The position numbers and the translations under genes were made by a program. Source: Nitrospirota bacterium (lineage in GTDB: Bacteria; Nitrospirota; UBA9217). Taken from it: 64,000 nt of DNA. The stretch spans positions 288,001 through 352,000 of the forward strand of contig CAWCKW010000013.1 of the NCBI GenBank assembly GCA_963796285.1, written 5' to 3'. The notes beneath the pieces are model-generated. The model was given only the letters and a program-made list of their open reading frames with translations. It was not told the DNA's origin and did not search any database. Shown here one piece after another: positions 1,475-58,151 of the stretch. Position 1 is the first letter of the stretch, and each line of letters begins with the position of its first letter.

Positions 1475-1843
1475 TTCTCGCAGAGGCGCAGAGCGCGCAG
1501 AGAAAATCGTAACAACAGCAGAAAAATTACCGCTTAATAAGTTGCATCTGGTACGACCGCACCAAATGCAAAACCTTTTCGCGCAAAGCCGTAGCCTGCT
1601 GTTGCCAAAACGCGGCCATAAACAAAGTCGCGAAGAACGTCAACAAAAGGGGAAAGCGATAAGTTCATAAGAAAACAATCAAGCCTGAGTCAGCCTGAAT
1701 ACGAGACCTGCTTTCCTTTGCGACTTTGCGGCTCTGCGCGAGACGCCTTGGTTCTTGACGTGAATAGTTGCAATAAGTTTTGAATTCAACATTAATAAGT
1801 AAGTTGCTGCTTTACCTCTGCGAGCCCTGCGCCTCTGCGAGAA
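1475..1843. repeat. Nested palindromic intergenic element (outer arms 1475-1502/1816-1843, inner arms ~1577-1635/1716-1743)
   Basis: Outer arms TTCTCGCAGAGGCGCAGAGCGCGCAGAG and CTCTGCGAGCCCTGCGCCTCTGCGAGAA are 26/28 reverse-complementary. The inner pair is of the CGCAAAG..CGCAAAG type, with a 31-bp insert at 1592-1622. Confidence 0.85.
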
Positions 1844-1859
1844 AACTGGTTTCTGTTTT

Positions 1860-2528
1860 TTATTTCAAAAGACCCGCCACAATCACCACGGGGATAGCAG
1901 CATACCCGAGAAAGAGAATTACTGCCGTTATTGTCCCCGCCTTGACAAACACCGGCAGCGTCCTGTCATTATTCAATCCCCAGGTCTGGAACGAGCTCTG
2001 GATCCCGTGGGAGAGGTGCAGCAGCAGACCAGCCACTGATGTAACATAGAGGGAAGCAATTCCCATATCCTGGAAACTTCGAACGACCATCATCAACACA
2101 TCGGGCCGGCCAAGGGCATCCGGATTATTTATCGCGGAGACCGCGGGATCGATGACCTGAATGGTAAAGTGCAGGAGGTGATAGACAAGGAACGCACCGA
2201 TCAGGGTGCCGGTCCAGATCATGTTCCTGCCGGCGAATGTGGTGCTGAGATGGTTCGTAACGGCATAGGACTGCGGCTTTGCCTTCTTATTCTCAAGCGT
2301 GACCACGATCCCGAAATAGATATGGAGGCAGAGCATCGCGACCATGAACAGGCGGATCATCCAGAGCAGGACCGGCAGTGCGTGCAAAGCAGCTGCATAG
2401 GCATTGAGGTTGTTGAAGTAAATTGTGGTATTGCCGAGCAAGTGGATAATAACGAACAGGATCATCATCTGGCCGGTGACGGCCATCAGGATCTTTCTGC
2501 CGACTGTGGATGAGGGTAAGAGAAACAT
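1860..2528 (-). CDS. sdhC: Succinate dehydrogenase cytochrome b subunit (b558 family)
   Basis: SSTVGRKILMAVTG, HLLGN, HLLHF and HLSHG heme-ligand motifs; multiple TM helices; upstream of sdhA. Confidence 0.93.
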   Translation of the reverse strand: MFLLPSSTVGRKILMAVTGQMMILFVIIHLLGNTTIYFNNLNAYAAALHALPVLLWMIRLFMVAMLCLHIYFGIVVTLENKKAKPQSYAVTNHLSTTFAGRNMIWTGTLIGAFLVYHLLHFTIQVIDPAVSAINNPDALGRPDVLMMVVRSFQDMGIASLYVTSVAGLLLHLSHGIQSSFQTWGLNNDRTLPVFVKAGTITAVILFLGYAAIPVVIVAGLLK

Positions 2529-2550
2529 GCTTGATCCTGTTCTTTCATCG

Positions 2551-2622
2551 CCTCCCCCTCAATGGGGAAGGTTGAGTGGGAGTGAACGTCAGGGATCACC
2601 CACCCTCCCCCCACGGGAGGGG
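2551..2622. repeat. REP-like double hairpin between fumC and sdhC
   Basis: CCTCCCC-ctcaat-GGGGAAGG and CCCTCCC-cccac-GGGAGGG hairpins, plus GGGAGTGA/TCACCC pairing. Confidence 0.5.
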
Positions 2623-2631
2623 ATAATAATA

Positions 2632-4029
2632 TTATGTCTTGTCCCCGATTCCGCCCTCGGTCATCTTCTGCGGATCAAGCAGAGCATCCAGTTCTTCTTT
2701 CGACAGGTCCGTCATCTCAGCGGCAACGTCTTTGACCTGGCGGCCTTCAGCGTATGCCTTCTTCGCGATCTGCGCGGCCTTGTCATAGCCGATGATCGGA
2801 TTCAACGCTGTAACGAGGATGGGGTTCCTGTCAAGCAGCCCTGAGATGCGTTCCGGATTTATTGTAAAGCCTGCGATCGCCTTGTCCGCCAGGAGACGAG
2901 ATGCGTTCCCGAGAAGGGTGATGGACTGGAGCAGGTTGTGCGCGATAACGGGCAGCATGACATTCAACTCAAAGTTGCCCTGCTGATTCGCGATCGTGAT
3001 GGCGGCATCATTTCCTATGACTTGGGCGCAGACCATCATCATCATTTCGCACATCACGGGATTCACTTTCCCGGGCATGATGCTCGAACCCGGCTGGAGC
3101 GCGGGCAGGGATATCTCGCCGAGCCCTGCGATCGGGCCGCTGTTCATCCAGCGGAGGTCGTTCGCCATCTTCATGAAGGACGAGGCCGTCGCCTTCAACT
3201 GTCCGCTCAGTTCCACGGCCGTGTCCATGGTTGCCTGGGCAGCGAAGTGGTTGCCTGTTTCCACAAAGGGCAGTTTGGTCCGGCCGGCAAGCCTGTTGGC
3301 AACGATCGTGCCGTAATCCTTCGGCGCATTGATGCCCGTGCCCACAGCGGTGCCGCCGATCGCGAGCCTTGCAAGACGGGGCAGCGTGGATTCGATGCGC
3401 TCGCTGCTTTGCTCGACCTGGAAGGCCCAGCCGCTGATCTCCTGGCTAAGACGGATAGGCATGGCATCCATCAGATGCGTGCGGCCGGTCTTGACGATTT
3501 CATGATACTCGGACTCACGTTGCTTGAGCGTTGTGTGAAGGTGTCTAAGTGCCGGGAGCAGGCGCTCATGGACTTCGAGGTAGGCGCTCACATGTATCGC
3601 AGTGGGGATGATGTCATTCGATGACTGGCCCATGTTCACGTCGTTGTTCGGGTGGACCGGCTTTGCCGAAGGCCCGAGGAGCTGCATGGCGCGGACCGCT
3701 ACCACCTCATTGGCGTTCATGTTCGTTGATGTTGCCGAACCGGTCTGGAAGATATCGAGCGGGAATTGGGCATCCCAGGCGCCATCGGCAACCTCGAGCG
3801 CGGCGAGATGGATCGCGTGCGCGATGTTCGCATCGAGCAGCCCCAGCCCGGCGTTCACTTCAGCGGTAACCGCCTTGATGAGCCCAAGGGAGCGGATGAA
3901 GACGCGGGGGAACCGGATGTTGCTCACGGGAAAGTTCTCCACCGCGCGCTGGGTCTGCGCCCCGTAGAGCGCATCCGCGGGGACTTTTACTTCGCCAAGA
4001 GAGTCTTTTTCAATGCGGTAGTCGGTCAT
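2632..4029 (-). CDS. fumC: Class II fumarate hydratase
   Basis: GSSIMPGKVNP signature, TGRTHLMDA, YGAQTQRAVENF. Confidence 0.97.
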   Translation of the reverse strand: MTDYRIEKDSLGEVKVPADALYGAQTQRAVENFPVSNIRFPRVFIRSLGLIKAVTAEVNAGLGLLDANIAHAIHLAALEVADGAWDAQFPLDIFQTGSATSTNMNANEVVAVRAMQLLGPSAKPVHPNNDVNMGQSSNDIIPTAIHVSAYLEVHERLLPALRHLHTTLKQRESEYHEIVKTGRTHLMDAMPIRLSQEISGWAFQVEQSSERIESTLPRLARLAIGGTAVGTGINAPKDYGTIVANRLAGRTKLPFVETGNHFAAQATMDTAVELSGQLKATASSFMKMANDLRWMNSGPIAGLGEISLPALQPGSSIMPGKVNPVMCEMMMMVCAQVIGNDAAITIANQQGNFELNVMLPVIAHNLLQSITLLGNASRLLADKAIAGFTINPERISGLLDRNPILVTALNPIIGYDKAAQIAKKAYAEGRQVKDVAAEMTDLSKEELDALLDPQKMTEGGIGDKT

Positions 4030-4215
4030 AAGATCAGTCGAGAGTCAGAATCAGTCGATAGCCGACTGATTGTGCAATTATACCTATTCTTTCCGGTTTT
4101 TGCACGATGATTTTCTCGTAAGCGAAAGGCCAACCCGGAATTGCCGCCTGTTATCCAGTTTCCGCATTTGACCATCGGGAGAATAGCTTCTATAATAGAG
4201 AACAGGGAGATCAGT

Positions 4216-5631
4216 ATGACGCGCTCTGGATTCAGTCCCAGTCCCAGCTACAGCATTACAATACGGGTGGAGATCGAGAACCGGATCGGTATGTTCGCCA
4301 GGATCGCCACGGCCATTAGCGGCGCCGGAGGCGATATGGGCGCCGTTGACATCGTGGGCGTTGAAAAGAGCAAGATCATCCGGGACATCACCGTGAACGC
4401 CCGGGACGAGGAGCACGAGCAGGCCATCGTGAATGCAATCTCGACCGTACCCGGCGTGAAGGTCCTCAGGTCCACGGACCGCACGTTCACGGCCCATGAA
4501 GGCGGAAAGATCGAGATTAAAAACAAGCTCCCGGTGCGGGACCGGAACGACCTGTCCAAGGTCTATACGCCGGGCGTTGCGCGGGTCTGCATGGACATCC
4601 ATCAGAACAAAGAACATATGTACCGCTATACGATGAAGGGCAATTCCGTGGCCGTGGTGAGCGACGGGACCGCGGTGCTCGGTCTAGGCAACATCGGGCC
4701 CGAGGCCGCGCTGCCGGTCATGGAAGGCAAGGCCATGATCTTCAAGGAGTTCGCGAACGTCAATGCCTACCCCATCGTGCTGGCGACCAGGGATGTGGAT
4801 GAGATCGTCGCCACGGTCAGGAACATCGCGCCGGCCTTTGGCGGCATCAACCTCGAGGATATCTCAGCGCCCCGCTGTTTCGAGGTCGAGGCCCGGCTCC
4901 GGAAGCTGCTCGACATCCCGGTGTTCCATGACGACCAGCACGGCACTGCCGTGGTCGTGCTCGCCGCGCTCATCAATGTTTCACGGCTGCTCAAGCGCGA
5001 CCTGAAAAAGTTCAAGGTCGTGGTTGTTGGCTCGGGTGCGGCCGGTTCAGCAACGACGAAGATCCTCCTGACCTGGGGGATCAGGGACATCATTGTATGC
5101 GACAAGATCGGCGCACTCTATGCCGGCAGAAAGCAGGGTATGGACCCCTATAAAAGCCTGTTGGCAAAATCCACGAACCCGCGGAAAGTGAAGGGCCGCA
5201 TTTCGGACGCCATGAAGGGGGCGCACGTGTTCATCGGCCTTTCTGCCCCGAATGTGATCACTGCCGCCGACATCAGGAGGATGGCCAAAGACCCCATCGT
5301 CTTTGCCCTCGCCAATCCCGATCCCGAGATTGCGCCCGAGGAGGCCATGCCTCTGGTGCGCGTCATGGCCACAGGACGGTCCGACTACCCGAACCAGATC
5401 AACAATATGCTTTGTTTCCCCGGCATGTTCCGGGGACTGCTGGACGTACAGGCACGCGGGGTAAATGAGGCAGTAAAACTCGCCGCTGCCCGCGCAATAG
5501 CCAAGACGGTCAAGACCAGCGAACTGCAGGAAGATTACATCATCCCGAGCCTCTTCGACCGCACCGTGGTTGCGTCCGTAGCAGCGGCCGTTGGAGAGAC
5601 GGCAAGGAAAACGGGGTTGGCGAGGAAATAA
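4216..5631 (+). CDS. NAD(P)-dependent malic enzyme with N-terminal ACT domain
   Basis: [59 protein letters not shown] 4216 follows GGGAGA. Confidence 0.93.
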
Positions 5632-5632
5632 A

Positions 5633-5727
5633 TTCAGGGTTCTGGGTCCAGTATCTCAGACCCCGGTATCGCGCAACTAACGTTTTGTTTGACTCGTACC
5701 CTGACCCCCGAACCCTCACCCCTGAAT
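5633..5727. repeat. Degenerate heptamer palindromic array
   Basis: TTCAGGGTTCTGGGTCCAG... on the left; ...CCCTGACCCCCGAACCCTCACCCCTGAA on the right. Confidence 0.55.
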
Positions 5728-5737
5728 AGAGGAGCCC

Positions 5738-7009
5738 ATGGACACAAACCACGACCGTCTCCACCGTGACGAAAAAGACCTCCGCAGTCTTGCCATGACC
5801 GAACTGCAGACGATCTACGCCGGCCTCGGTCTCACCCAGGAGGAGCTCGATCTCCTGTCCGTGCCGCGGCGGTCCTTTACGGTGAGCTTTCCCGTGAAGA
5901 TGTCGACGGGCCGGACGCAGATGTTCACGGGTTACCGCGTACAGTACAATGACGCGCGCGGCCCCGCCAAAGGCGGCATTCGCTTTCATCCCGGGATGGA
6001 CGAAGAGCATGCAAGCGAACTGGCCCTTCTCATGGCACTCAAGTGCGCGGTGGTGAACATTCCCTTCGGCGGCGCCAAGGGCGGCGTTGCGCTCAATCCG
6101 AGAGAATTTTCGAGGCATGATCTCGAACTGGTGACGCGCGGGTACATCCGGGCCATCGCGGACCACATCGGCCCGTTCAAGGATATCCCCGCGCCAGACG
6201 TGTACACCGATGAACAGATAATGGCGTGGGTCCTCGACGAGTATGAACAGATCAAGCGTGAGCACTGTCCCGCCGTGGTCACGGGAAAACCCCCCGCGCT
6301 GGGCGGTATCAGGGCGCGCAGATACTCGACCGCGCTGGGCGGCGTCCACGTACTTGAGGCGGCCATGAAGGAACAGGGAATGAAAGTGCAAGGGAGCCAT
6401 GTTGCGGTCCAGGGGTTCGGCAATGTGGGCGGGAATGTCGCGCGCATTCTTCATCACTGGGGCTACACGGTCGTGGCCGTGAGCGACGTGAACGGCGCCA
6501 TCATGGACCCGGCGGGGCTCGATATCTCCGCGCTCAGACATCACCGGACCAGGACCGGCAGCGTCGTCGGGTTCGAAAACGCCAAAGCCATTACCAACGC
6601 AGAGCTCCTTGCCATCGACTGCGACATCCTGATACCCGCGGCCCTCTCGAACCAGCTCGACGGGAACAATGCCAATGATGTGAAGGCAAAGATCGTCGTC
6701 GAGCTCGCGAACGCGCCGCTCACCGCGCAGGCTGATGATAGCCTTTTCAACAGGGGCATTATGGTCATCCCCGATATCCTTGCCAACGCGGGCGGCGTGG
6801 TGGTGAGCTATTTCGAATGGAGCCAGAATTTAAGCAACGATGCCTGGCCTGAGGAAAAGGTACTTGAACGCCTGAAGCAGGTCATGACCAGTGCGTTCAA
6901 TGACGTCAACGACCACTGCCGCGAAGCACAGTGCCGCATGCGAAAGGCCGCCTACGAACTGGCCGTGAAGAGGATCCTGAAAGCGGAGAAACTGCGGGGC
7001 AATTTGTAA
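5738..7009 (+). CDS. gdhA: Glu/Leu/Phe/Val dehydrogenase (glutamate dehydrogenase)
   Basis: GPAKGGIRFHP, FGGAKGG, DIPAPDV, VQGFGNVG, PDILANAGGVVVSYFEW. Confidence 0.93.
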   Translation: MDTNHDRLHRDEKDLRSLAMTELQTIYAGLGLTQEELDLLSVPRRSFTVSFPVKMSTGRTQMFTGYRVQYNDARGPAKGGIRFHPGMDEEHASELALLMALKCAVVNIPFGGAKGGVALNPREFSRHDLELVTRGYIRAIADHIGPFKDIPAPDVYTDEQIMAWVLDEYEQIKREHCPAVVTGKPPALGGIRARRYSTALGGVHVLEAAMKEQGMKVQGSHVAVQGFGNVGGNVARILHHWGYTVVAVSDVNGAIMDPAGLDISALRHHRTRTGSVVGFENAKAITNAELLAIDCDILIPAALSNQLDGNNANDVKAKIVVELANAPLTAQADDSLFNRGIMVIPDILANAGGVVVSYFEWSQNLSNDAWPEEKVLERLKQVMTSAFNDVNDHCREAQCRMRKAAYELAVKRILKAEKLRGNL

Positions 7010-7121
7010 TTTCAGATTTACCGGAACGCTGCATATAATAAAAATATCCCTCGTAGTGCCGGGATCGTTCGGCGGCATCTCTCCTCTGTACTATCATTCG
7101 ATCATATTAAAACATGACCTG

Positions 7122-8069
7122 CTACACATGGTTCCGGAGCATGAGTTCCAGGGGGTGAGGATTCAGGTATACCTGCTGTTTGAGGTACTCGACGTTGTAC
7201 TTGCGGACATAGTGCTGCAGCAGGGTGATCGGGACAATGATGGGCGCCAGCTCTTGATGGTAGTTCGCGATCACGTCCTGCAGCTCCTTTTTCTCATTAG
7301 GGGAAAGCTGCTGCTTGAAGTATCCCGCCATATGCTGCAGCACGTTCGTGTTCTTCCTGACCGTGGCAAGGAGTTGAAGTCCTTCCATCAGGGTCGCACA
7401 GTACCGTTCGAATAGTTCTTCACGCTTGTATTGTTTCGGGTCTGCAACGAGCTTGCCCAGGGCAGAATAGTGCTTCGGGCTGTGCGCCATAACCAGGAGC
7501 TTGTGCGCAGTGTGAAATGAAACCAGCCCGCCTGTTGTCCGGTCCGATGCCAAGAACTCCTGCCACCGTTTGTACACGAAGACCCGCTCGATGAAATTTT
7601 CCCGGAGACCAGGGTCGTGGAGCCTGCCTTCATCCTCAACAGGCAAAAGCGGAAACCGGTCTTGAAAGGCCTTTGCAAAGATGCCGGACCCGGTGCTGAT
7701 GGGAACACCTTCGGGAGAGTAGATCTTGACGCCGCGCATGCCCGAACTCGGGGACCGGCTTTTGAACACGAAACCGCAGAGGTCCTCGGCCGCGAGGGTC
7801 GTGACCTTCTTCTTTGCCCATTGACGCATGCGGCTGGTATGGTCCACGCCAGTGCGGATCGTCACGAGGCGCGGGGCCTCGACATCGCCCACGAGATGCA
7901 TGGCCTCGCGCGGCACCGGCAGGCCGCACTCGACCTCGGGACAGACCATCACCCAGTCAACATACGCGCCCAGCGTAAAGGTCAAAAAATGGTCAAGCTT
8001 GTGGCCGCCGTCATAGCGCACCTTTTCGCCCAGGAGGCAGGAGCTAACGCCGAGTTTTATCTTTTCCAA
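7122..8069 (-). CDS. DUF523 (TudS-like) + DUF1722 (YbgA) fusion protein
   Basis: GVSSCLLGEKVRYDGGHK, CPEVECGL, KSRSPSSG, C-terminal YLNPHPLELMLRNHV. Probable TTG start at 8069 after AGGGAGA. Confidence 0.88.
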   Translation of the reverse strand: MEKIKLGVSSCLLGEKVRYDGGHKLDHFLTFTLGAYVDWVMVCPEVECGLPVPREAMHLVGDVEAPRLVTIRTGVDHTSRMRQWAKKKVTTLAAEDLCGFVFKSRSPSSGMRGVKIYSPEGVPISTGSGIFAKAFQDRFPLLPVEDEGRLHDPGLRENFIERVFVYKRWQEFLASDRTTGGLVSFHTAHKLLVMAHSPKHYSALGKLVADPKQYKREELFERYCATLMEGLQLLATVRKNTNVLQHMAGYFKQQLSPNEKKELQDVIANYHQELAPIIVPITLLQHYVRKYNVEYLKQQVYLNPHPLELMLRNHV

Positions 8070-8370
8070 AGTTTCTCCCTGACTTGATGACAGGGATAAA
8101 CATAGCACAGCATATCAGTGGTTGCAATGTATAATCAGGTATCGATGCGCATCTCCGATTGATCTGTTATCGAGCTCTTTACCATACGCGTCTTCAGCCC
8201 TGTCCAGCTCTAACCCCTTTTTTTATTCTTTATCTAACCGTCAAGTTCAGCTATAATTTAATAGAATCATACGGTTTATTGCTTTCGAACCCAGCTATCT
8301 ATGTTCAGCAACACTGGAATTCCCGTCGGGACGTGTTGGAAGTGATTTCGTGAACAAGGAGACATCTCAC

Positions 8371-9036
8371 ATGAACGTTCTTGATGCCCTCAATGGTCGC
8401 TATACCGTCCGCGCTTTTAAATCTGACCCGATCGACGCGGATACCCTCCAGAAGATACTGGAATCCGCCCTTCGGGCGCCTTCGTGGGCCAATACCCAGC
8501 CGTGGGAGATCGTTGTTGCCGGCGGCGAGGTCTTGAACAGGCTCCGCACCGCCTATATGGAGGATCTGAAGAACTGTGTACCGCGTAATCCAGACCTCCC
8601 TGTGCCGAAGCAATGGCCGCCCGCGCTGCAAAAACGCATGGAGGCATTGAAAGGAGAACGTCTTGCCGCTCTTGAGCGGGAATGCAAGGACCCGGCCATG
8701 ATCGAGGAACTGTCCCAGCTCAACTATCAGTTCTTTAAAGCGCCGGTCGTTCTGTATCTGTGCATGGACCGGACCCTCACACCCTGGTCGATCTTCGATC
8801 TCGGGTTGTTCGCGCAAAGCCTCATGCTGGCTGCACAGCACTACGGCATCGGCTCAGCTCCCGCGGTTACGCTTGCCGCCCACCCGGACCTTGTCCGGGC
8901 GGAATTGAAGATCCCCGAAGACCTGTTGATCATTATTGGGATAGCGCTTGGCTATCCTGATACACTGCATCCTCAGAACAAGTTCCGGAGTCCCCGGCGC
9001 ACGGTGCAGGACGCAGTTACCTTTACCGGGTGGTAG
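8371..9036 (+). CDS. Nitroreductase family protein
   Basis: RYTVRAF, APSWANTQPW, GIALGYPD; AGGAG RBS. Confidence 0.9.
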   Translation: MNVLDALNGRYTVRAFKSDPIDADTLQKILESALRAPSWANTQPWEIVVAGGEVLNRLRTAYMEDLKNCVPRNPDLPVPKQWPPALQKRMEALKGERLAALERECKDPAMIEELSQLNYQFFKAPVVLYLCMDRTLTPWSIFDLGLFAQSLMLAAQHYGIGSAPAVTLAAHPDLVRAELKIPEDLLIIIGIALGYPDTLHPQNKFRSPRRTVQDAVTFTGW

Positions 9037-9165
9037 CAGCGACGGCGCGAGTTTTTTCCTGTGCCGCCGGACCATGCTTTGGCACAGAAACTATGGATCT
9101 CAACTGCTCGTCGAGAAACAAAGAAATAAGTTGCAATCGTTGTCAATAGGAATGCGAGGCAGTCC

Positions 9166-14555: not shown

Positions 14556-14888
14556 ACCGCGGAGACGCTGAGACGCAGAGAAAGACAAAAAATGCCGCGT
14601 AATCACAAATGGACACGGTTAGATAATAAGAAAGAAGAGGCCGTAGGCGAAGCAACGCCAGTGTGGAAATGTCAATGTCCATGTCATAAGGTTGGACAGA
14701 TCGTGATTCATCCAGTGCCATGCTGTGAACCCTGTCCATATTGTAAAAAGAATGTTGCAAGAGGGGCATTGATTGAACACCTGAAGGATTGCAGTAAATA
14801 TCAAAAGACATGAAATAGTTTCTTAAGTTTTTCTCCGTGTCTCCGTTTATGGCCGCGTTTTGGCAACAGCAGGCTACGTCTCTGCGGT
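14556..14888. mobile_element. Palindromic-arm cassette enclosing a small ORF
   Basis: Left arm ACCGCGGAGACGCTGAGACGCAGAGAAA (14556-14583); right arm TTTCTCCGTGTCTCCG[31 bp]CGTCTCTGCGGT (to 14888). Confidence 0.65.
14592..14813 (+). CDS. Small Cys/His-rich hypothetical protein (putative metal-binding)
   Basis: 73 aa with CQCPCH...HPVPCCEPCPYC...H..DC; AT-richer than its neighbours; exactly fills the space between the repeat arms. Confidence 0.55.
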   Translation: MPRNHKWTRLDNKKEEAVGEATPVWKCQCPCHKVGQIVIHPVPCCEPCPYCKKNVARGALIEHLKDCSKYQKT

Positions 14889-14911
14889 GAAAATTTATTT
14901 GGAGTTCTGGA

Positions 14912-16546
14912 ATGAAGGCATCCGATCTGTTCGTCAAGCAGCTGGAAGAGGAAGGCGTCGAATATATCTTCGGCCTGCCGGGTGAGGAAAACCTGCACTT
15001 TCTCGAATCGCTCCGCACATCGTCGATCAAGGTTATCATCACCCGCCACGAGCAGACCGCGGCGTTCATGGCCGCCACCTACGGCCGGCTCACCGGCAAG
15101 GCAGGCGTGTGCTTTGCGACACTCGGGCCGGGGGCCTTGAACCTGGTAACGGGAGTGGCCCATGCCCAGCTCATCGGCGCCCCGTTCGTATCCATCTCAG
15201 GCCAGAAGGCGCTCCGGGAGAACCGTCAGGCCCGCTTCCAGCTCGTCGATATCGTTAGCCTGATGCGGCCGATCACCAAGGACGCCGTATCCATCGTCGA
15301 TCCGGGAATGGTCCCGACGATCCTCCGGAACGCCTTTAAGCTCGCCCAGGCAGAGAGGCCGGGTGCGGTACATCTGGAACTTCCCGAGGATGTCGCGGAA
15401 AGCGAGACCGATGCAACGGTGCAGAAGCGGGGCCTCGTGCGCAGGCCCGTACCCGATGCCAAGGCGCTCATGCGGGCCGCTGGCCTGATCGATAAGTCGA
15501 AAAATCCGCTCATCATCCTGTCATCGGGCGCGAACCGGAACCTGATCACCAGACAACTGGTGCAGTTCATTGAGAAGACGGGGATCTTTGCCGTACACAC
15601 CCAGATGGGCAAGGGAGTGCTGAGCGATGCGTCGGACCACAGCCTCTTTGCGACGGGAGTTCACCGGCGCGATTACGTCAACTGCGGCATCGACCGGGCG
15701 GATTTGATCATCACGATCGGATATAACATCGTCGAATATCCTCCCTATGTCTGGAACAAGGGCCTCGACAAGAAGATCATTAATATTGATTTCACCGAAG
15801 CGGAGGTGGACCGGTACTATGACCCCGATATCGAGGTCATCGGCGATATCTCCTGCTCGCTCCGGCAGCTCGCGGAACTGATCACGGAAAGGAAGAACGG
15901 TGATACGTTCAAGACCATCCGGGAATTCCTCGACCGGAAGCTTTCGCTCGCATTCAAGAAACAGTATCCCCTGACGCCGCAGCAGGTCGTTTGGCATGTG
16001 CGGGATGTGCTGGCGCATGAGGACATCCTGTCACTGGATAACGGGATCTACAAACTGTGGTTCTCGCGCCTGTACAAGACCTACCGGCCCAATACGTTCC
16101 TGCTGGACAATGCGCTCGCGACCATGGGCGCGGGGCTGCCCGCAGGCATTGCCGCCAGGATGATCAGACCGGATAGGAAGGTCCTTGCGGTCGTGGGAGA
16201 CGGCGGGTTCATGATGAACTCCCGGGAGCTGGAAACCGCGCTGCGGTACAATGTTCCGCTCGTCGTCCTGGTCCTGAATGACAATGCCTTCGGGTTCATC
16301 AAGTGGGAGCAGCAGGCCAAGGGATACCCCTGCTTCGGGCTCGACTATGGGAACCCTGACTTTGTGAAGTACGCCGAAAGCTACGGCGCCGTCGGCATCA
16401 AGGTCCAAGACGGGGACGACCTGTCCGAACTTCTGCGGAAGGCCTTTGCAATGAAGACCGTCGTGCTCATCGAATGCCCGATCGATTATTCGGTCAATTA
16501 CGAGACGTTCTCACAAGAGCTTGCCAATATCGTGTGCGAACGCTGA
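14912..16546 (+). CDS. TPP-dependent acetolactate-synthase-like enzyme (possible 2-oxoglutarate decarboxylase)
   Basis: GVEYIFGLPGEENL, RHEQ, TLGPGALN, GDGGFMMN...LNDN TPP motif; no ilvN small subunit nearby. Confidence 0.85.
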   Translation: MKASDLFVKQLEEEGVEYIFGLPGEENLHFLESLRTSSIKVIITRHEQTAAFMAATYGRLTGKAGVCFATLGPGALNLVTGVAHAQLIGAPFVSISGQKALRENRQARFQLVDIVSLMRPITKDAVSIVDPGMVPTILRNAFKLAQAERPGAVHLELPEDVAESETDATVQKRGLVRRPVPDAKALMRAAGLIDKSKNPLIILSSGANRNLITRQLVQFIEKTGIFAVHTQMGKGVLSDASDHSLFATGVHRRDYVNCGIDRADLIITIGYNIVEYPPYVWNKGLDKKIINIDFTEAEVDRYYDPDIEVIGDISCSLRQLAELITERKNGDTFKTIREFLDRKLSLAFKKQYPLTPQQVVWHVRDVLAHEDILSLDNGIYKLWFSRLYKTYRPNTFLLDNALATMGAGLPAGIAARMIRPDRKVLAVVGDGGFMMNSRELETALRYNVPLVVLVLNDNAFGFIKWEQQAKGYPCFGLDYGNPDFVKYAESYGAVGIKVQDGDDLSELLRKAFAMKTVVLIECPIDYSVNYETFSQELANIVCER

Positions 16547-22271: not shown

Positions 22272-22380
22272 GACAAATTCCAAATCCCAAACTCCAAGCA
22301 ACAAATAAGCACTGGTAACAAAACACCATGCTCCGGTTTGGTTATTGTAATTTGGTATTTGCGATTTGATATTTCATTTA
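22272..22380. repeat. AAATTCCAAA-type heptamer palindromic array
   Basis: CAAATTCCAAATCCCAAACTCCAAGCAACAAATAA ... TTTGGTTATTGTAATTTGGTATTTGCGATTTGATATTT. Confidence 0.7.
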
Positions 22381-49003: not shown

Positions 49004-50527
<1,524 letters not shown>

Positions 50528-50602
50528 TCAGATGACAGAGGACAGAGGACAGACAAAAGTTTCGGGCTCTTCTGACTTCTGTCTTCTGACTTCTGTGTTC
50601 TG
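50528..50602. repeat. CAGAGGA heptamer palindromic array between atpH and atpA
   Basis: CAGATGA CAGAGGA CAGAGGA CAGA ... TCTGACT TCTGTCT TCTGACT TCTGTGT TCTG. Confidence 0.85.
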
Positions 50603-50607
50603 GCTTA

Positions 50608-51144
50608 TTAGTTCATCAATTGACTGCGCATCTTGGCGAGCTGGTTCTTGATCGTCCCATCGTAGACCGTGCTTCCGATCTGTGCCTTGGCCCCGCCGAT
50701 CAGGGACGCATCCACCTGTGCATCGACGTCAACCTGCTTGCCGGTGAGCGCCTCAAGCTTCTTCTTAATGTCCGCAAGGTCGGCCGGGCTGATGGCCGCC
50801 GCGGTCGTCAACCGTGCCATTGCGCGATTCGTGCGCTCCGCCAGGATCTCCAGGAACGCCTCATACACGTCCTTGATATACCTGATCCTGCCCGTTTCAG
50901 CCAAATGCTCCACAAACCGCTGCGTGGTCGGCTGCATGCCGAGCTTGCCCGCAAGTTCCTTGATGACCGCCTTCTTATTCTCGGGGGTGAACACAGGGCT
51001 TGCCAAAAGCTTCTGCAGGGCCGGCAGGGAATCCACCGCTCCGACAAACGCGGCAAGGTCGGCCCTGGCCTTGTCAACGGTCTTCTTTTCCTCGGCAAGC
51101 TGCACGAGGGCCTTTGCGTATCTTTTTGCGATGATCCGAATCAA
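50608..51144 (-). CDS. atpH: ATP synthase delta subunit
   Basis: IAKRYAKAL, VDASLIGG, STVYDGTIKNQL. Confidence 0.95.
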   Translation of the reverse strand: MIRIIAKRYAKALVQLAEEKKTVDKARADLAAFVGAVDSLPALQKLLASPVFTPENKKAVIKELAGKLGMQPTTQRFVEHLAETGRIRYIKDVYEAFLEILAERTNRAMARLTTAAAISPADLADIKKKLEALTGKQVDVDAQVDASLIGGAKAQIGSTVYDGTIKNQLAKMRSQLMN

Positions 51145-51730
51145 GCCCGGCCTCCCACTTTGGAAATATATTCCTTCACAATGCGCTCATGGTCCTGATT
51201 GCTGATCTTCGCTTTAATGTTGCCTTCCGCAAGTTCGAGGGAAAGGAGCGATGCCTCGGTTGCGAGCGCGGACTTGGCCTTCTGAAGCTCGAGCTCGATG
51301 CCCTGCTTCACCTGGGCCTGAACGTCCTGGGCAACCTTCCGGCCTTCTTCAATGAGGGCCTGCTTGTCCTTCTCAGCCGCGGGCCTGGGCGTCGGCGACC
51401 ATGCCCTTCGTCTCCGCCTCCATCTCCGGATCTTCCGTTCCATTTCCGCCAGGGCGGCCACGGCGCGCTCCCGGGTTTCCTTGGAATCCTGCAGGGCTTT
51501 TGCGATCTCGGCGGACCGGTTTGCAAAGAAATCACGGACGGGCTTTCTCCGAAATAAACGACAACCGACGCGATGATGGCAAAATTGACCAGCCGCGGCA
51601 GCCAGTCTCCCATGAAGGTCATCGCTCTTCATGGCCGCCTTCCGCGGCTTCTTCGGCGAACGCGATCGCCGCGAACACAAGCGTTCCCGCCAGGCAGAAT
51701 ACTGCGATAGATTTTTTTCAGGCTATTCAT
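51141..51730 (-). CDS. atpF: ATP synthase subunit b (about four indels in this sequence)
   Basis: Segments across frames: MNSLKKSIAVF...AEGGHE / MTFMGDWLPRLVNFAII / RKPVRDFFANRSAEIAKAL / MEAETKGMVADAQAR / EKDKQALIEEG...DHERIVKEYISKVGG; position between b' and delta. Confidence 0.85.
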
Positions 51731-51766
51731 GATTTTTTTTATCTCAACTTCGCTCCTTCATCGCTT

Positions 51767-52192
51767 CTACACCGCCCTTCCGAGCAGCTTGGAGGTAATT
51801 TCCTGCGACAGCCGCTCCGCCTCTTGCCTGAGGTCGGCGCGGGCGGCCGCGGACGCCGCCGCGATCTCTTTCCGCGCCTTGTCCAGCAATTCGGTCGCCT
51901 TGTCGCGCTCCGCGGAGATCATGTCACGCTGGGCGTCGAGGCCCTGCTGATAAACAGTGTTGTAGGTTGTTGCGGCCTTTTGCTTTGCCTCGGCCAGAGA
52001 TGCATTGTACCGCTCCAGGATGGCCTGCATGTGCTCCTGCGCGGCCTTGGCATCGCCCAGTGCGGAACTGATTCCCTGCTCACGCTCCAGCATGATCTGC
52101 CGGATGGGCTTAAAGAGGATGAAATTAAGCACGATAAGCAGCACGAGGAAGTTGGCGAGCTGCCAAAGGAGTGTGATGTTAATGTCTATCAT
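51767..52192 (-). CDS. ATP synthase subunit b'
   Basis: TLLWQLANFLVLLIVLNFILFKPI followed by an Ala/Glu-rich coiled coil. Confidence 0.9.
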   Translation of the reverse strand: MIDINITLLWQLANFLVLLIVLNFILFKPIRQIMLEREQGISSALGDAKAAQEHMQAILERYNASLAEAKQKAATTYNTVYQQGLDAQRDMISAERDKATELLDKARKEIAAASAAARADLRQEAERLSQEITSKLLGRAV

Positions 52193-52526
52193 AAGTGCGA
52201 GCGCCTCTTCTGTTCAGCAGAGAAAGGGAAATTAACGTTCTGAAGTCTAAAAAAATTATCACAACGTCCCACACTTGTCAAGAATTTTGCCTATTAATAA
52301 TATAAATGAGCGCCGGGTTTTTGGTTATAGAAAAAATTGCAGTGCACGCGGGAAGAACGTGGAGCTCTCGGCCGGCAGCGGGAAAACGGATGACGAAGCG
52401 GTGCCGAGAAGACTGCTCACAGCACCGGGTACAGGAGGTCCCGTGTCTCGTTGGCCTTCCTTGATAAATTCCGGGACAGACCGTCAACCACAAAGAAACA
52501 TTTTTTCATACTCGTCGCGAACGCAG

Positions 52527-53168
52527 TTACACCTGCGGCTTCATCTTCAGCGCCAGCGCGATGATCGTGTCCGCAGCCGGCTCAAACCCCGTTGCCTGGG
52601 CATCCAGGCAGAGGTGGTAGTTCCTGGCATCGTACCAGTCCTTCTCCGTCCTGGTCCGGAGATATTCCTCCCGACGATGGTCGGATTCGTCTATTTCTGC
52701 GAGCGCCTGTTCTGCAGAAAGCGAATGGAATTTTTTCAGTCGCGCGATCCGAAAATCCTTCGGAGCATGGATATATACGTTGAATACATGCGGCCGTCCG
52801 CGCAACACGCTGAAGCCTGCATGACCTACGATCACCGCATCATGGCTTTCAGCGATCTGTCGGATAATGCGGCACTCGGTATTGAACAGTTCCTCATCAT
52901 ACACAGGCCTCCGGGACGGCGGGACATAGAGCGTTTCCGGAGTGCCGACGACAAAGCTCTTTATTATGCTCTCGATAAATCCGCTCTTCTTTTCGTCCTG
53001 GCTCGAGATCTCCTTGATGTCGACGCCAAGGTCCCGTGCCGCGATATAGAGCACTTCCCGCTCAATGTATCGGCAGCCGAGCTTTCTGGCGACAAGGTGA
53101 CCGATATACGCGCCGCCGCTCGCCAACTGCCTGGAAATAGTGATCACTGTTTTTTGATCATTCGTCAT
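52527..53168 (-). CDS. Cytidylate kinase-like family protein
   Basis: VITISRQLASGG, VIVGHAGF, VYIHAP, YHLCLD. Confidence 0.88.
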   Translation of the reverse strand: MTNDQKTVITISRQLASGGAYIGHLVARKLGCRYIEREVLYIAARDLGVDIKEISSQDEKKSGFIESIIKSFVVGTPETLYVPPSRRPVYDEELFNTECRIIRQIAESHDAVIVGHAGFSVLRGRPHVFNVYIHAPKDFRIARLKKFHSLSAEQALAEIDESDHRREEYLRTRTEKDWYDARNYHLCLDAQATGFEPAADTIIALALKMKPQV

Positions 53169-53267
53169 GTGTGCCTCCCTTTACGCAAACCCGACAAGCC
53201 ATACTTCCCTCCGCAACGTTTGCGAGAGACAGCCTTTAGTTTTTTGCTTTTCTCTGCGACTCTCTTG

Positions 53268-54815
53268 CTACTCAGCCACGATCTCCACGACTCCTTCCCG
53301 TTTCTTCTGCGACTTCAGGAGAAAGACAAAGGGCAAAGAAATGATGAACAGGATCGTGACCAGCAGATACATGTAATTATACGCCATCATCCCCGCCTGG
53401 CGCGAAACCTCTCCGTCCATAAGAGTAAGTGCCATCTGCCGGGCGGTAGCCGGATCTGCCCCCTGGCCCTGCATGCCACCGGTTACGGTTCCGATCCATT
53501 GCGTGCCGACCTGGCTGTATTCGGTCACCTTCTCGGCCAGGAGCGCGTGATACCCCGTCATCGCTTTGGTAAGCTGCGAGGCGGCTATGGCGATGCCGAT
53601 GCTCGCAAAGACCTGGCGCACTACGTTATAGAGCCCGGCTGCGGCGGTCATACTCTGTTTATTGATCGTGGAAAGCGCCGCAGTGCTGAGCGCGACGAAG
53701 ATCAGGCCGAATCCCGCGCCCTGCAGGAGCTGCGGCACTATAAAATCCAGAATCCCGACGTTCAGCGAGAGGCGCGAAAGCTGATAGAACGACAGGGCGG
53801 TCACGAGCAATCCGCTCCCGATCAGCGCGCGCGGTCCCAGCTTGTTGTACAGCCTGCCGCCGACGGGCATGGCCACTGCCATGGCAAGGCTCCGGGGCAT
53901 CAGCGCAATGCCGGAATCCAGCGCCGGATAGCCGAGGAGCTGCTGCAGGAACATGGGGAGCAGGAAGAGGCTGCCGAACAACCCCATGCCGAGCAGGCCG
54001 CCGATGAACGATCCCGACGCGAAGTTGACATCCTTCAGCATCCGGAGGTCCACGGCGGGCTTCTCGCAGGTCAGTTCACGCCAGACAAAGAGCGCCATTG
54101 CCGTGAGGGAAACGATCATCAGGCCCCGGATCATATCCGATTCGAACCAGGCCTCACGCTCTCCCCGCTCGAGCAGAAGCTGGAGCGCACCCAGGCCCGC
54201 GACCATGAAACCGAGGCCGAGGAAGTCAATTTTCCCTTTTTCCCGAACGAGGTAGGACGGGTCCTTGATGTTCCTCATGACCATCAAAATATTGATAATG
54301 CCGAAGGGCACGTTGATGAAGAATATCCAGGGCCAGGAATAGTGGTCCGTGAGCCAGCCGCCGAGGGTCGGACCGAAGGCCGGGCCCAGAACAACGCCGA
54401 ATCCGAAAAGTCCCATGGCCTTCCCCTGCTCTTCAGGCGGAAAGGTTTCCCGCAGGATCGCCTGGGAAACGGGGATCAGCACGCCGCCGCCGATGCCCTG
54501 GATCACGCGAAAGACGACCATGGAGGTGAGGTCCCAGGCAATGCCGCAGAGCATGGAGCTTATTGTGAAGCTGACGATGCTGAAGAGGTAGAAGTTCTTC
54601 CGGCCGTACCGTGCGCTCAGCATGCCCACAATGGGCATACTGATGACGCTCGCCAGGATATATCCAGTGGCGACCCAGGTGATCTCCTCGACGGACGCAC
54701 CGAGGGAACCGCGCATGTACGGCAGCGCCACATTGATAATGCTCGAATCCAGCGCGGCCATGATGGTGCCGAGCATCACCGTGAGCGTGATGATCCATTT
54801 ATCCGATTTCGCCAT
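53268..54815 (-). CDS. emrB: DHA2 (EmrB/QacA) MFS efflux permease
   Basis: LDSSIINVALP, WVATGY, GPTLGGWLTDHYSWPWIFFINVP. Confidence 0.92.
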   Translation of the reverse strand: MAKSDKWIITLTVMLGTIMAALDSSIINVALPYMRGSLGASVEEITWVATGYILASVISMPIVGMLSARYGRKNFYLFSIVSFTISSMLCGIAWDLTSMVVFRVIQGIGGGVLIPVSQAILRETFPPEEQGKAMGLFGFGVVLGPAFGPTLGGWLTDHYSWPWIFFINVPFGIINILMVMRNIKDPSYLVREKGKIDFLGLGFMVAGLGALQLLLERGEREAWFESDMIRGLMIVSLTAMALFVWRELTCEKPAVDLRMLKDVNFASGSFIGGLLGMGLFGSLFLLPMFLQQLLGYPALDSGIALMPRSLAMAVAMPVGGRLYNKLGPRALIGSGLLVTALSFYQLSRLSLNVGILDFIVPQLLQGAGFGLIFVALSTAALSTINKQSMTAAAGLYNVVRQVFASIGIAIAASQLTKAMTGYHALLAEKVTEYSQVGTQWIGTVTGGMQGQGADPATARQMALTLMDGEVSRQAGMMAYNYMYLLVTILFIISLPFVFLLKSQKKREGVVEIVAE

Positions 54816-54861
54816 GTCGTGTTGTTGGTTCCTTAAATTCTAATCAAAGGTCAAAGCTTTT

Positions 54862-54984
54862 TCTCGCAAAGCACCGCAAAGGTCGCAAAGGGAACCTTAG
54901 GTCAAAATGATTTTTTAGTTTAAACCAGAAGCAAGCCGCTGCTTTAGATTTTCTTGGCGTCCTTTGCGTGCTTTGCGAGAGACG
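54862..54984. repeat. CGCAAAG-arm palindromic element between emrA and emrB
   Basis: TCTCGCAAAGCACCGCAAAGGTCGCAAAG ... TTTAAACCA ... CTTGGCGTCCTTTGCGTGCTTTGCGAGAGACG; same family as 57980-58113 and 60737-60842. Confidence 0.8.
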
Positions 54985-55008
54985 CCTTTTTTATTCTGCT
55001 TGTCCGTG

Positions 55009-56094
55009 TCAGGACTTTTCTTTGGTCGCCACCGACGGATAGACCGAAAGCCCGGGTCGCAGCGGATGGGCCGGATCAGGTTTCGAATCGATCAGTATCT
55101 TGACCGGTACGCGCTGCACGACCTTCACGAAGTTGCCCGTGGCGTTCTGCGGCGGCAGGAGGCTGAAGACCGCGCCCGTGCCCGGCTGAAAGCTGTCAAC
55201 ATGCCCCGCGAAGGTGACGCCCGGATAGGCGTCCACGGTGATGTCCACCGGCTGGCCCGGCTTCATATGGGCGATCTGCGTTTCCTTGAAGTTCGCCACC
55301 ACCCATAGACTGCCCTCATCCACGATTGCGAGGAGCGGCTGGCCGGGCTGCACATACTTTCCCTCGTCCACGTTCTTCTTGGCGATCCTGCCGTCGACAG
55401 GGGCCGTGACGGTGGTCCGGTCCAGGTCGAGCCGTGCCCGGTTCAAGGCTGTCCCGGCCTCCCGCATCTTGAACTTCTGGGTCTGGAGCTGGGCGTTCAG
55501 CGCCTCGATGGAGGCCTCGATCTCAGCCACCGCTGCGCTGGCCGAGGCCTTCCGGGCCACGGTGTCCCTCGATCTCGATTCCGCCTGATCATACTGACTT
55601 TGCGAGATCACTTCCTGTTTATGGAGCTCGGTGCTTCGCTTCAGGTCTTTCTCTGCCAACGCCACGCTTGTTTCCATGGCATCCAGATCGGCCCGGGCGC
55701 GTGCGAGCGTCATCGTCTTGACCTTGATCAACGCATGCGTTTCCTGCTGTTCGGCGGTCATGCGGGACATGCTGTCCTGCCTGGCCTGGACCAGATTGGA
55801 ATAGTCGTCCGACGCTATTTCCACCAGCGGTTCACCGGCTTTCATGGCCTGGTTGTCGGCAACGAACACCTTCAGCACCCTTCCTTTGACCTCCGAACTG
55901 ATCGGGACCACAACTCCTTCGACAAAGGCATCGTCCGTGCTCTCGTGCGCAAGCGCATAGGTTGTTTTCCGCACGCCGTATACAAGGCCGACGATCAGGC
56001 AGAGCACAATAACGACCCTCATCCCCCAGGTTTTCAGCGCCGCCCGGCCTGATGATCCGGTTTCCAATTCTTCGGTACTTTTCTGCATGAACAT
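55009..56094 (-). CDS. emrA: EmrA/HlyD family membrane fusion protein
   Basis: STDDAFV, APVDGRI, WVVANFKETQ, LLPPQNATGNFVKVVQRVPV. Confidence 0.92.
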   Translation of the reverse strand: MFMQKSTEELETGSSGRAALKTWGMRVVIVLCLIVGLVYGVRKTTYALAHESTDDAFVEGVVVPISSEVKGRVLKVFVADNQAMKAGEPLVEIASDDYSNLVQARQDSMSRMTAEQQETHALIKVKTMTLARARADLDAMETSVALAEKDLKRSTELHKQEVISQSQYDQAESRSRDTVARKASASAAVAEIEASIEALNAQLQTQKFKMREAGTALNRARLDLDRTTVTAPVDGRIAKKNVDEGKYVQPGQPLLAIVDEGSLWVVANFKETQIAHMKPGQPVDITVDAYPGVTFAGHVDSFQPGTGAVFSLLPPQNATGNFVKVVQRVPVKILIDSKPDPAHPLRPGLSVYPSVATKEKS

Positions 56095-56266
56095 GACAAG
56101 ATTCTCCTTCTAATAACTATTCCGCGCAATTGCAATTCTGTCAGTGCGTTATTTCCCTCATGCTATCATTCCCGAGGGCGTAATCGGGAATATGGTTTAC
56201 ATAAAAAATACAGCCGGATCCCCGATAGAAACGATCGGGGATGACTGTATAGACCGCTGCGCCAGT

Positions 56267-56902
56267 TCACTGGACCATGACCCCGCCCAGGAACACCCGC
56301 AGCGTCTGATGAATCCATTGCTCGCGGTATTTCCCATCCGCCGGCGACGGCCCGAAGAGGTCCTTTCCCAGGGGTGTCCTTCTCCTTGCATGGGAGATCT
56401 GCGCAGAGAGGGATTCCGCCGCAAAAGACGGGTCCACATCGCCTGCAAGGAGCTTGTTCTTTTTGGCCTGGTTCAGGAACTCGATCAAGGCCGCGCGATG
56501 CTTGAGGATCGTTTGCTGGATAACATGGTCGCTCCGCTCCATCTCGCGCTGCATGATGTAAATGACATCGGGCTGCTCCATCATCGCCTCGATCGTTTGG
56601 CGTATAAAGATCTCCAGCCGCACCTTGAGTTCGTCCGGGCTGTGCGGAGGCAGAAGCGTTTTTCTCGAAGAGACCAGCAGGTCCGAGATGAACTGCTCGA
56701 TGATGTGGCGGAAAAGCTTCTCTTTTGATTCAAAGTGATAGTTGACCGCCGCGATGTTCACCCCCGCCGTTTCACTGATTTCCTTGATCGAAACCCCGTC
56801 GTACCCCTTTTCAGCGAAGAGTCGGGTGGCCTCGGTAACAATGCGGCCGGCCGTGTCCTGTGTGAGCAAAGGTTCCTGCTGCGATTTGCGCTTTTTCTCC
56901 AT
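56267..56902 (-). CDS. TetR family transcriptional regulator
   Basis: ATRLFAEKGYDGVSIKEISETAGVNIAAVNYHFESKEKL. Confidence 0.92.
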   Translation of the reverse strand: MEKKRKSQQEPLLTQDTAGRIVTEATRLFAEKGYDGVSIKEISETAGVNIAAVNYHFESKEKLFRHIIEQFISDLLVSSRKTLLPPHSPDELKVRLEIFIRQTIEAMMEQPDVIYIMQREMERSDHVIQQTILKHRAALIEFLNQAKKNKLLAGDVDPSFAAESLSAQISHARRRTPLGKDLFGPSPADGKYREQWIHQTLRVFLGGVMVQ

Positions 56903-57047
56903 CTGAACGCCTTTCCCGGACATCGTGATGGGTAAACAACCGTGGACACCATAAACCACCGGGGCAAGGGAGTCAAATTATTATTTTTAATATTCAAATG
57001 ACCATTTGAAATAGACGTCGTCGGTAGGCCGAGAAGGGACAATGCCG

Positions 57048-57903
57048 CTACGGATGCAATCGCCGGCACGGTTCGAGGATCGCGTTGATGTCTTTATCGC
57101 CGTATTGTTCGCGCCGCCAGCGGTAAGGCAGGTCGATGATCTCGCCCGGCCGGGTGATGGCGCACAACGCGCGAAACGCCTCGGCAAGAACGACCCGCTG
57201 CTGGTCCGTGTTGAACGGTTCGCCCAGCGGATGGCCGAACGGCCAGCGCAGATAAACAGTCCGGGGCGGCTTCACCTTTACGGAATAGTCCCGCACGATC
57301 GAGATGCCGATGGTGGGTGTCCCTTGCCGCTCGATCTCCCGCTGGATCAGCCCCACGGACTGATTGCAGATGCCTCAGCCGGGCGTAAGCAACACCACGT
57401 CCGAGCCGTCCTGTCGTATCCGTTGTGCGATCTCGGGCGCCGTCGTGTTGATCAGCGTCAGGATGTGCGGCCCGGTGATATGTCCCATGAAGCCATAATG
57501 ATATCGGGCAACCTTTGCAATCGCGCCTTCGCGTTCGAACTCCCGCAGGCGCTCCGCGGGAAAGACCACGTTGATGTCACGGTCCGCGTCCGCGTGGTCG
57601 TAATAGTCGTGGGTGATCATCAGGTCTGTCGAGCGGGCGGGTGAGATCGATGACACGCCAGGAAGGATCGCCGTCCCGGTCGGCCATGTCGAAGGGCTTC
57701 TGGTCGCGGTGATGCACGCCCGCGGTCGTCACCATTGTCACGGTGCACTCCGAAAGCGGCTTTACGAACGGCGTCCAGGGCACGTCCTCCGATTCCCACG
57801 GCGCGTAGGACTGCACGAAACGCGTCGCGAGCGAGGGGAACCTCGTGATCACGCGCGCTATCAACCTATTTTTAAGGCTGTTCCAGGTCATGTTGTTTTG
57901 CAT
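57048..57903 (-). CDS. GrdB/PrdB-like selenoprotein (UxxC); in-frame TGA at 57375-57377 and an apparent indel near 57630
   Basis: Three ORF pieces join: VTTAGVH..FD...GDPSWR / THDYYDHADADRDINVVFP...YGFMG...DVVLLTPG-TGA-GICNQSVGLIQREIERQG...PPR...PFGHPLGEP. Confidence 0.85.
57346..57364 (-). promoter_or_regulatory. Candidate bacterial SECIS hairpin
   Basis: ATCAGTCC-GTG-GGGCTGAT stem-loop starting 10 nt after the in-frame TGA, with a G-containing apical loop. Confidence 0.6.
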
Positions 57904-57935
57904 GCGATCAAATAGAATTGCAGCAGCGGCTTTTT

Positions 57936-58151
57936 GGTAACTAAGTGAATCAAATTCTACTCAAAATGGCAAGAATATTTCTCGCGAAGGCGCAAAGCTC
58001 GCAAAGAAAGGCTAAATTACTTATTATTTTAAACCAAGACTTAAAGCTTTTCTTGGCGTTCTTTGCCTGTGCCCGCGCCTTGGCAACAGCAGGGTACGTC
58101 TTTGCGAGAGACGATTTTGGGTTTGAATTTTAGTTCCGGCTTGTCCGGGTT
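57936..58151 (+). mobile_element. Non-autonomous 216-bp insertion element (copy 1), including a 31-bp insert
   Basis: It interrupts a 73-bp sequence whose uninterrupted copy is at 58661-58733. Ends are GGTAACTAAG... and ...TTCCGGCTTGTCCGGGTT. Confidence 0.8.

Follow-up and report, generated by a model that had tools for sequence, protein, structure and literature searches.

Why does a 31-bp hairpin sequence interrupt short tandem repeats, at the same dinucleotide step, in three separate places within 64 kb of a bacterial genome? The sequence, here called M, lies in a 64,000-nucleotide stretch of a Nitrospirota genome (G000:C13:288001-352000, hereafter the window), which is part of a 3.58-Mb assembly of 13 contigs that is 96 % complete (G000). 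The tracts of short tandem units that it interrupts are referred to as arms. According to a first-pass annotation, M is a tiny structured element with the arms as its target, and this part of its reading is supported here: nearly all copies lie in repeat arms or in other copies of M, precise empty sites are present, and the hairpin shows covariation. M is probably a site-specific, structure-dependent insertion module that is mobilised in trans, a judgement that does not extend to the class of the enzyme, and it is read here as a miniature non-autonomous insertion element like the repetitive extragenic palindromic (REP) sequences or the small dispersed repeats (SDRs). Because it is found precisely inside other repeats and inside its own copies, M has the behaviour expected of a mobile element, which would rank among the smallest known in bacteria. 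The multiplication of such repeats, REPs and SDRs included, is poorly understood, and several families are without a known transposase.

M interrupts arms at three loci in the window

The 31-mer TTTATGGCCGCGTTTTGGCAACAGCAGGCTA is located at 14846-14876 on the forward strand and its exact reverse complement at 1592-1622. Two matches with three or fewer mismatches were found in the window, against 0.00 expected from 100 shuffles, and the 14-base core of M occurs three times against 0.52 expected. The third copy, at 58066-58096 on the forward strand, differs from the 31-mer at seven of 31 positions (1, 2, 4, 7, 13, 14, and 29), in agreement with the 24/31 match originally reported. The first two copies are identical and belong to subtype T1 (M1a, TTTA...GGCC...GGCAAC...GGCTA); the third is of subtype T2 (M2a, CCTG...GCCC...GGCAAC...GGGTA). 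Each is recognised by a covariance model, R1, with scores of 50.2 bits for the copy at 14846, which has a 4-nt 5′ tail followed by a 27-nt hairpin, and 47.7 bits for that at 58066. Re-reading of the sequence confirmed the coordinates of all three copies and that each interrupts its arm at G^CG.

The host arm of the copy at 14846, located at 14828-14889 on the forward strand, is made of tandem 8-nt units (TCTCCGTG / TCTCCG^CG / TCTCTGCG), with M at CCG^CG, 35 nt upstream of an open reading frame (ORF) at 14912-16546. The copy at 1592 is reverse-oriented in the left arm (1576-1639, reverse strand) of an inverted-repeat element; this arm is purine-rich on the forward strand, the site on the M strand is CTTTG^CG, and the uninterrupted partner arm is at 1711-1745 on the forward strand. 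The same CTTTG^CG site is used at 58066, in the right arm (58047-58113) of a forward-strand hairpin element whose left arm is at 57980-58011. Such host hairpin elements are approximately 100-170 nt long, both in the window (54862-54984, 57980-58113, and 1576-1745) and genome-wide, and an arm consists of two to four units of 7-10 nt (CTTTGCG, CTCTGCG, CTCCGTG, CTTCGTG, and others).

It had been reported that removal of M restores an arm matching its partner in each case. This holds for two of the loci, where 1576-1591 joined to 1623-1639 matches 1711-1745, and 58047-58065 joined to 58097-58113 matches 57980-58011. At the third, the candidate partner of the restored arm (14828-14845 joined to 14877-14889) is an inverted tract at 14560-14586 on the forward strand, about 260 nt upstream and read from the alignment, and it is tentative because the match is looser and arm-like. 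The homologous arm that had been described as uninterrupted, at 54953-54984, does provide a precise empty site. It belongs to a paralogous hairpin element (54862-54984, forward strand) with both arms intact, and its arm at 54949-54984, when aligned to the filled arm (58047-58113), matches on either side of a gap of 31 columns, which places the empty site at 54966^54967 (CCTTTG^CGTG; junction assigned by eye).

Census and subtypes of M in the genome

The genome-wide search for the 31-mer and the covariance model, both suggested by the first-pass annotation, show that M is a high-copy repeat. A regular expression finds 56 copies in G000, nhmmer finds 67 (E < 0.01), and model R1, built from 42 distinct sequences, finds 75 (E <= 0.01), a figure that includes hosts split by a nested insert. 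A 24-position pattern with at most one mismatch has 45 matches in the genome and none in the reversed control. Counts of site and orientation are based on 61 strict copies, each 31 nt long, 50 of which lie outside any crude ORF call of at least 100 aa.

M is non-coding and consists of the 4-nt tail and 27-nt hairpin noted above. Positions 5-9 pair with 27-31, forming a basal helix of 5 bp; a bulged A (A26) follows, then 2 bp (10-11 with 24-25), a 4-nt internal loop, and 2 bp (16-17 with 22-23) that close a GCAA-type tetraloop. Positions 13-15 are a variable, G-free triplet. Three subtypes are distinguished by the stem, T1 (...TGGCC...GGCTA), T2 (...TGCCC...GGGTA or GGGTG), and T3 (...TCCCC...GGGGG). 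In a further variant, with CCCGGC/GCCGGG, there is C for the bulged A26 and G for C9; this is read as a continuous, re-registered stem. In each of these forms the apex is either GGCAAC or CGCAAG. The CCCGGC/GCCGGG variant is present in a separate arm family of ATTCCGCA units (G000 C7:14376-14406, C13:247623-247653, and C12:1192594-1192624).

Longer relatives of M, 29-43 nt in length, share its ends (TTTAT or CCTGT ... GCAGGGTA) and have another core. They are seen at G000 C1:29110-29150, C1:48912-48952, C6 around 21587, and in the region of C12:1942358, sit in arms or in each other, and host copies of M at CTCG^CG. A de novo regular expression for other modules with M-type ends, which is too narrow, gave seven matches.

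Insertion sites and self-nesting

M is inserted between the G and the C of YYG^CG or, for one subtype, of TGG^CA. Among the strict copies, the base before the insertion is G in 58 of 61, the base after it is C in 54, and the next base is G in 46. Arms account for 27 copies at YYG^CG and four at other G^C sites. Loops of other M copies hold nine (TGG^CAAC) and those of reverse-oriented M hold seven (CTTG^CGAA); six are in the related P/N module family (CTCG^CG), and eight elsewhere, several of these in other types of arm. The two conditions under which the first-pass annotation would have been refuted, a majority of copies outside arms and a lack of precise empty sites, both turned out in its favour. 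The orientation of M is constant relative to the target motif, and in arms it is co-oriented with the pyrimidine-rich CTYYGYG strand. Arm tracts number 322 in G000 against 94 in the reversed-genome control; they are found in inverted pairs, with the unit type matched between the two arms of a pair, and the arm context of M is alike in other genera.

Nested inserts are 30-31 nt long and always follow base 18 of the host. Taking out the insert leaves an intact 31-mer as host in all seven reverse-oriented cases and in approximately ten same-oriented ones, and nesting therefore involves no target duplication, as had been reported for the window copies. The subtypes differ in where they are seen. 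T3 is present only in M loops of the GGCAAC type, in approximately ten copies whose hosts vary in subtype, triplet, and flanks, while a CCTG...ATAT subtype is seen only in reverse M loops of the CGCAAG type (seven copies). No guide-target match of the kind known for IS608, in which positions 1-4 or 13-16 of M would correspond to the target flank, was seen by eye.

Covariation supports the hairpin

The structure ....(((((((....((....)))).))))) was tested on the 42 distinct M sequences. Across its nine pairs, 96.8 % of 378 cells are paired, against 84.4 % in shuffles, and five of the nine pairs change on both sides; neither the paired fraction nor the covariation score was reached by any of 500 shuffles. 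When the pairing partner is slid by one to three columns, only 22-42 % of cells are paired. Related sequences inflate shuffle tests, and more weight is therefore given to how many pairs covary and to the outcome of sliding the partner. RNAalifold independently recovered six of the nine pairs.

The exchange of G7-C29 for C7-G29 that had been noted between the window copies is real and is one of the five covarying pairs. Pair 7-29 is CG in 26 sequences and GC in 13, and pair 17-22, which closes the GCAA loop, is CG in 27 and GC in 14. Pair 6-30 is most commonly a G.U wobble (GU 32, CG 4, AU 3), pair 16-23 is UA in 40 and AU in two, and pair 5-31 is UA in 32, UG in six, and CG in one. The states of pairs 7-29 and 17-22 are found in all four combinations, so the covariation does not reflect a single inherited event. 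Owing to the wobble pairs, full pairing is seen on the M strand only.

Such conservation could also be expected of a hairpin that is retained for a role in RNA or DNA, as a protein-binding site, a processing site, or a regulatory hairpin, with spread being secondary. Strong conservation outside the G-free triplet and compensatory changes would fit this, as would the GCAA tetraloop at the apex and the location of many copies just upstream of genes. The 40 wobble cells, which would be A.C or C.A on the other strand and have no A.C or C.A counterpart on the top strand, are likewise as expected for RNA. However, conserved ends and a conserved stem would be just as expected if a copy had to be intact to be mobilised, and orientation to flanking genes is random. 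The strict copies are sense to tandem genes in 19 cases and antisense in 25, with nine in divergent and eight in convergent regions, matching the background of 1311 tandem, 344 divergent, and 339 convergent intergenic regions. Nested copies split the loop of their host, the copy number ranges from 0 to approximately 75 among close relatives, and a scan of the window at Rfam gathering thresholds gave no family at M or elsewhere. A selected functional hairpin is considered very unlikely as an explanation.

M at orthologous loci

Comparisons were made with relatives in which the DNA flanking the loci is 92-96 % identical to the window (G004) or 67-86 % identical (G001, G003, G005, and G008). At G000 C12 around 540000, a stepwise series is seen, with an empty arm in G001, M in G004, and M containing a nested T3 in G000, separated by gaps of 62 and 31 columns. 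The empty arm of G001 and the filled arms are made up of equally many units, again without target duplication, and in G006 the whole host element is absent. Conversely, the arm at G000 C12 around 1650860 is empty where G004 has a 62-nt composite (L175), the flanks being contiguous once the composite is removed.

The window loci also differ from those in G004. M at 14846-14876 is absent from the orthologous arm, the flanks of which are slightly different; the cluster of approximately 330 nt around 1592 is wholly absent; and at the 58066 locus there is a different M variant at another arm unit. An element with M and T3 is present in G004 where the window has unrelated sequence at approximately 22285-22360. 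In short contigs from four public metagenome runs, M-free forms of the arms join 14843 to 14877 (X1) and 1589 to 1623 (X6), with TG between; as arms are multi-copy and the likeness was set at 88 %, the sequences may derive from paralogous arms or from other strains. Upstream of the 14846 copy, a cysteine-rich 73-aa ORF without a Pfam match (14592-14813, forward strand) lies between the 14560-14586 tract and the 14828-14889 arm. This stretch cannot be aligned to G004, in which the interval is shorter (approximately 180 nt against approximately 305 nt).

Several observations weigh against independent insertion of M, in addition to those from the search for an enzyme described below. G000 lacks two of the G004 copies and, with them, a single 8-nt unit of the arm, the pattern expected of a deletion between direct repeats. 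At other loci the entire element is replaced, and most of the orthologous differences in M are without an assigned polarity. The folding energy of M is no better than that of shuffles (DNA folds of the M strand, z = -0.77 and +0.73), and there is no replication-strand bias, with M on the leading strand in 27 cases and on the lagging strand in 28 (55 copies, by GC skew, leaving out two in an ambiguous bin and four on small contigs).

Some of this variation would be accounted for if M had no mobility of its own and were an optional block of larger inverted-repeat elements, similar to bacterial interspersed mosaic elements, that spreads when they are copied and is gained, swapped, or lost through gene conversion, recombination, and slippage. 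The exact loss or gain of the additional 8-nt unit in two cases is consistent with this. Host elements that are nearly identical differ in the M subtype present at a given position, and at one orthologous site G004 has M1b with a reverse nested copy, whereas G000 has M1a with a forward nested copy. At locus L118, a tandem pair of M contrasts with a single copy, and close relatives differ in the presence of entire host elements. Conversion, however, leaves unexplained the 31-nt inserts at one phosphodiester of the tetraloop, in both orientations and in varied hosts. Nor does it explain the presence of M in three unrelated host contexts, or the stepwise series from empty arm to M to M with a nested copy. 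A mosaic repeat is an unlikely explanation for M, and the insertion module is the preferred reading.

Search for a mobilising enzyme

If M is an insertion module mobilised in trans, an enzyme would recognise the folded hairpin together with its ends and would cut and join at the G^C step, with each subtype keeping its own preferred target. No such enzyme was found in G000 or from the gene content of the relatives examined. G000 has two Y1 transposase genes, an ordinary IS200 tnpA and a frameshifted gene encoding Y1 plus a helix-turn-helix domain (Y1-HTH; C12:2055289-2055564, L002) that abuts a contig end. Their proteins score 50.2 and 40.2 bits with the REP_Tyr_transpos model, against a cut-off of 80. 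M lies beside neither gene, one of which has its 5′ flank cut by the contig end, and the resident IS200 hairpins (L001 1400-1422 and 1911-1931) differ from M by eye. Six intact relatives of the Y1-HTH gene (L168-L173, approximately 290-330 aa) have inverted repeats of their own on their flanks, of the GGGGTCA type, and not M. Nor does Y1 content track M: G004, which is 89 % complete, has 26 pattern matches and no Y1 match, while G008 has four Y1 matches and no M.

Other transposable elements were also considered. TnpB is rejected as the mover, being absent from the M-rich genomes G000, G004, and G013. IS110 is uninformative, since it is present in all five genomes tested. Neither TnpB nor IS110 content tracks the number of M copies across relatives. 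One IS110-family element of 1542 bp begins at 62741 and extends past the window end to C13:352282, with an ORF at 62840-63886; a second copy, at 98 % identity, is on contig C3, and the flanks are neither arms nor M. An IS4-like insertion of 1355 bp with an open frame of approximately 400 aa (G000 C3:351278-352632) is located downstream of an M copy, at a distance of 40 nt. The orthologous site in G004 lacks this insertion, partial copies of which are on C12; it is rejected as a mover because it is unrelated to M.

The first-pass annotation had suggested, as an example, a scar or recognition hairpin of a repeat-targeting transposase; M would then be the remnant, solo end, or recognition hairpin of a bigger element that encodes a transposase and inserts into arms. 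A hairpin with precise junctions free of duplication does resemble the ends of single-strand transposons. Nevertheless, no larger element bounded by M halves was found in the 3.58-Mb assembly, the only one scanned for it. Forty-two pairs of a left half and a right half lie 81-5000 nt apart, and inspection showed no M-like left end in an arm for any of them; the only split copies of M in G000 are the hosts of a nested 31-nt insert. The ends of the resident IS200 are different, and the IS4-like and IS110-like elements near M copies bear no relation to it. This interpretation is accordingly hardly probable at all.

For the insertion module, the best guess for the enzyme, and a tentative one, is a single-strand HUH/Y1-type protein or another structure-specific nuclease-ligase. 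It is also conceivable, though rather doubtful, that M and its relatives form an undescribed class of ultra-small "nesting-doll" mobile hairpins. These would home into the G^C of hairpin loops and arms, with subtype targets encoded by the element, would be moved by neither RAYT (REP-associated tyrosine transposase) nor IS200/IS605 enzymes (for example by a structure-specific host or phage enzyme), and would build the intergenic repeat landscape of the clade.

Distribution and implications

Matches to the M pattern are present in ten of 31 relatives, including G000, with none in reversed controls. The covariance model detects M in eight of 27 genomes of its own family and in none of 123 genomes from 21 other families of the phylum. 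In a scan of one genome per species, 80 of at least 90 matching stretches were listed; 70 of these are from Nitrospirota or Thermodesulfovibrionales metagenome-assembled genomes, and ten are singletons elsewhere, where approximately nine chance matches are estimated (37-bit pattern, 1.2e12 positions). Among the genomes scanned and the matches listed, the finds of M come from a single family-level clade of Nitrospirota. A predicted viral contig of 26 kb also has one copy, which lies in an arm (L268 10939-10969, reverse strand).

The evidence for M is unusually clean for so small a repeat, with a fixed size of 31 nt and exact junctions, nesting of M in itself at a single phosphodiester, targets that differ by subtype, covariation at five pairs, and stepwise loci. 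Its substrate, in terms of hairpin, ends, and G^C target, is defined tightly enough for direct biochemistry. Elements of this kind thus exist in uncultured Nitrospirota without an obvious RAYT. Together with the host arms, M makes the intergenic regions of the clade hypervariable, which matters for strain typing, for assembly breaks, and for how promoters are read.

Comparison with known small repeats

Elements of the IS200/IS605 family have ends defined by hairpins and insert by a short specific motif, with no target duplication and seamless empty sites; their orientation is biased relative to replication. The junctions of M behave in the same way, with no duplication, a fixed short motif, and seamless empty sites. 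In M, however, one hairpin serves both ends. Three features of the family were also looked for and not found, in that M does not match the resident IS200 ends, lacks the replication-strand bias, and is not linked to tnpA or tnpB. IS200/IS605 is the best mechanistic analogy for M, these differences notwithstanding.

With the GTAG-tagged REPs and REPINs (paired REPs), M shares several features given in the main text of PMC3733652. Both are extragenic palindromic units of 20-40 bp in high copy, with subfamilies that differ by complementary stem changes and with frequent G.T pairs, and some REP families also insert inside larger palindromes. This comparison rests on main-text descriptions, and the supplementary family lists may hold families closer to M. 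The REP descriptor in passages of PMC6006769 calls for GTAG or GTGG 0-2 nt 5′ of the hairpin, with degeneracies allowed in the text of PMC3733652, and for a basal stem of 7-20 fully paired bases (PMC6006769). The reverse-strand tags of M are G from the flank plus TAG in T1, GTAC in T2, and GCCC in T3, so that T1 fits GTAG only with a borrowed flanking base, and M has only 5 bp before its bulge. Unlike a REPtron, M flanks no RAYT gene among the two Y1 genes of G000 and the six Y1-HTH relatives. The GGGGTCA-flanked Y1-HTH genes resemble instead the TIRYT class (tyrosine transposases associated with terminal inverted repeats) as outlined in the text of PMC3733652. No self-nesting at a fixed position of the loop was found in passages of PMC3733652 and PMC6006769, and nothing specific to REPINs or RAYTs in Nitrospirota appeared in search results or in the passages of PMC6006769.

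CGTC-tagged REPs are an abundant palindromic family apparently without a dedicated transposase, according to the text of PMC3733652, and are like M in this respect. They are described there as having stems of 8-9 bp, A-T first pairs, loops of 4-5 nt, and a CCA tail, none of which is seen in M.

SDR4-6 of the Nostocaceae (Elhai et al. 2008, Genome Res 18:1484) are, like M, very small, non-coding, argued to be mobile, and patchy within a restricted clade, as described in passages of PMC5861425. SDR5 is said there to insert at the short palindrome HIP1, and M likewise has a short palindromic target, the centre of YG^CG. SDRs are reported in those passages only from Nostocaceae, whereas M is from Nitrospirota. 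Judged by description, SDRs are the known repeats nearest to M in spirit. They measure 21-27 nt, against 31 nt for M, and nesting and a hairpin context are known for them.

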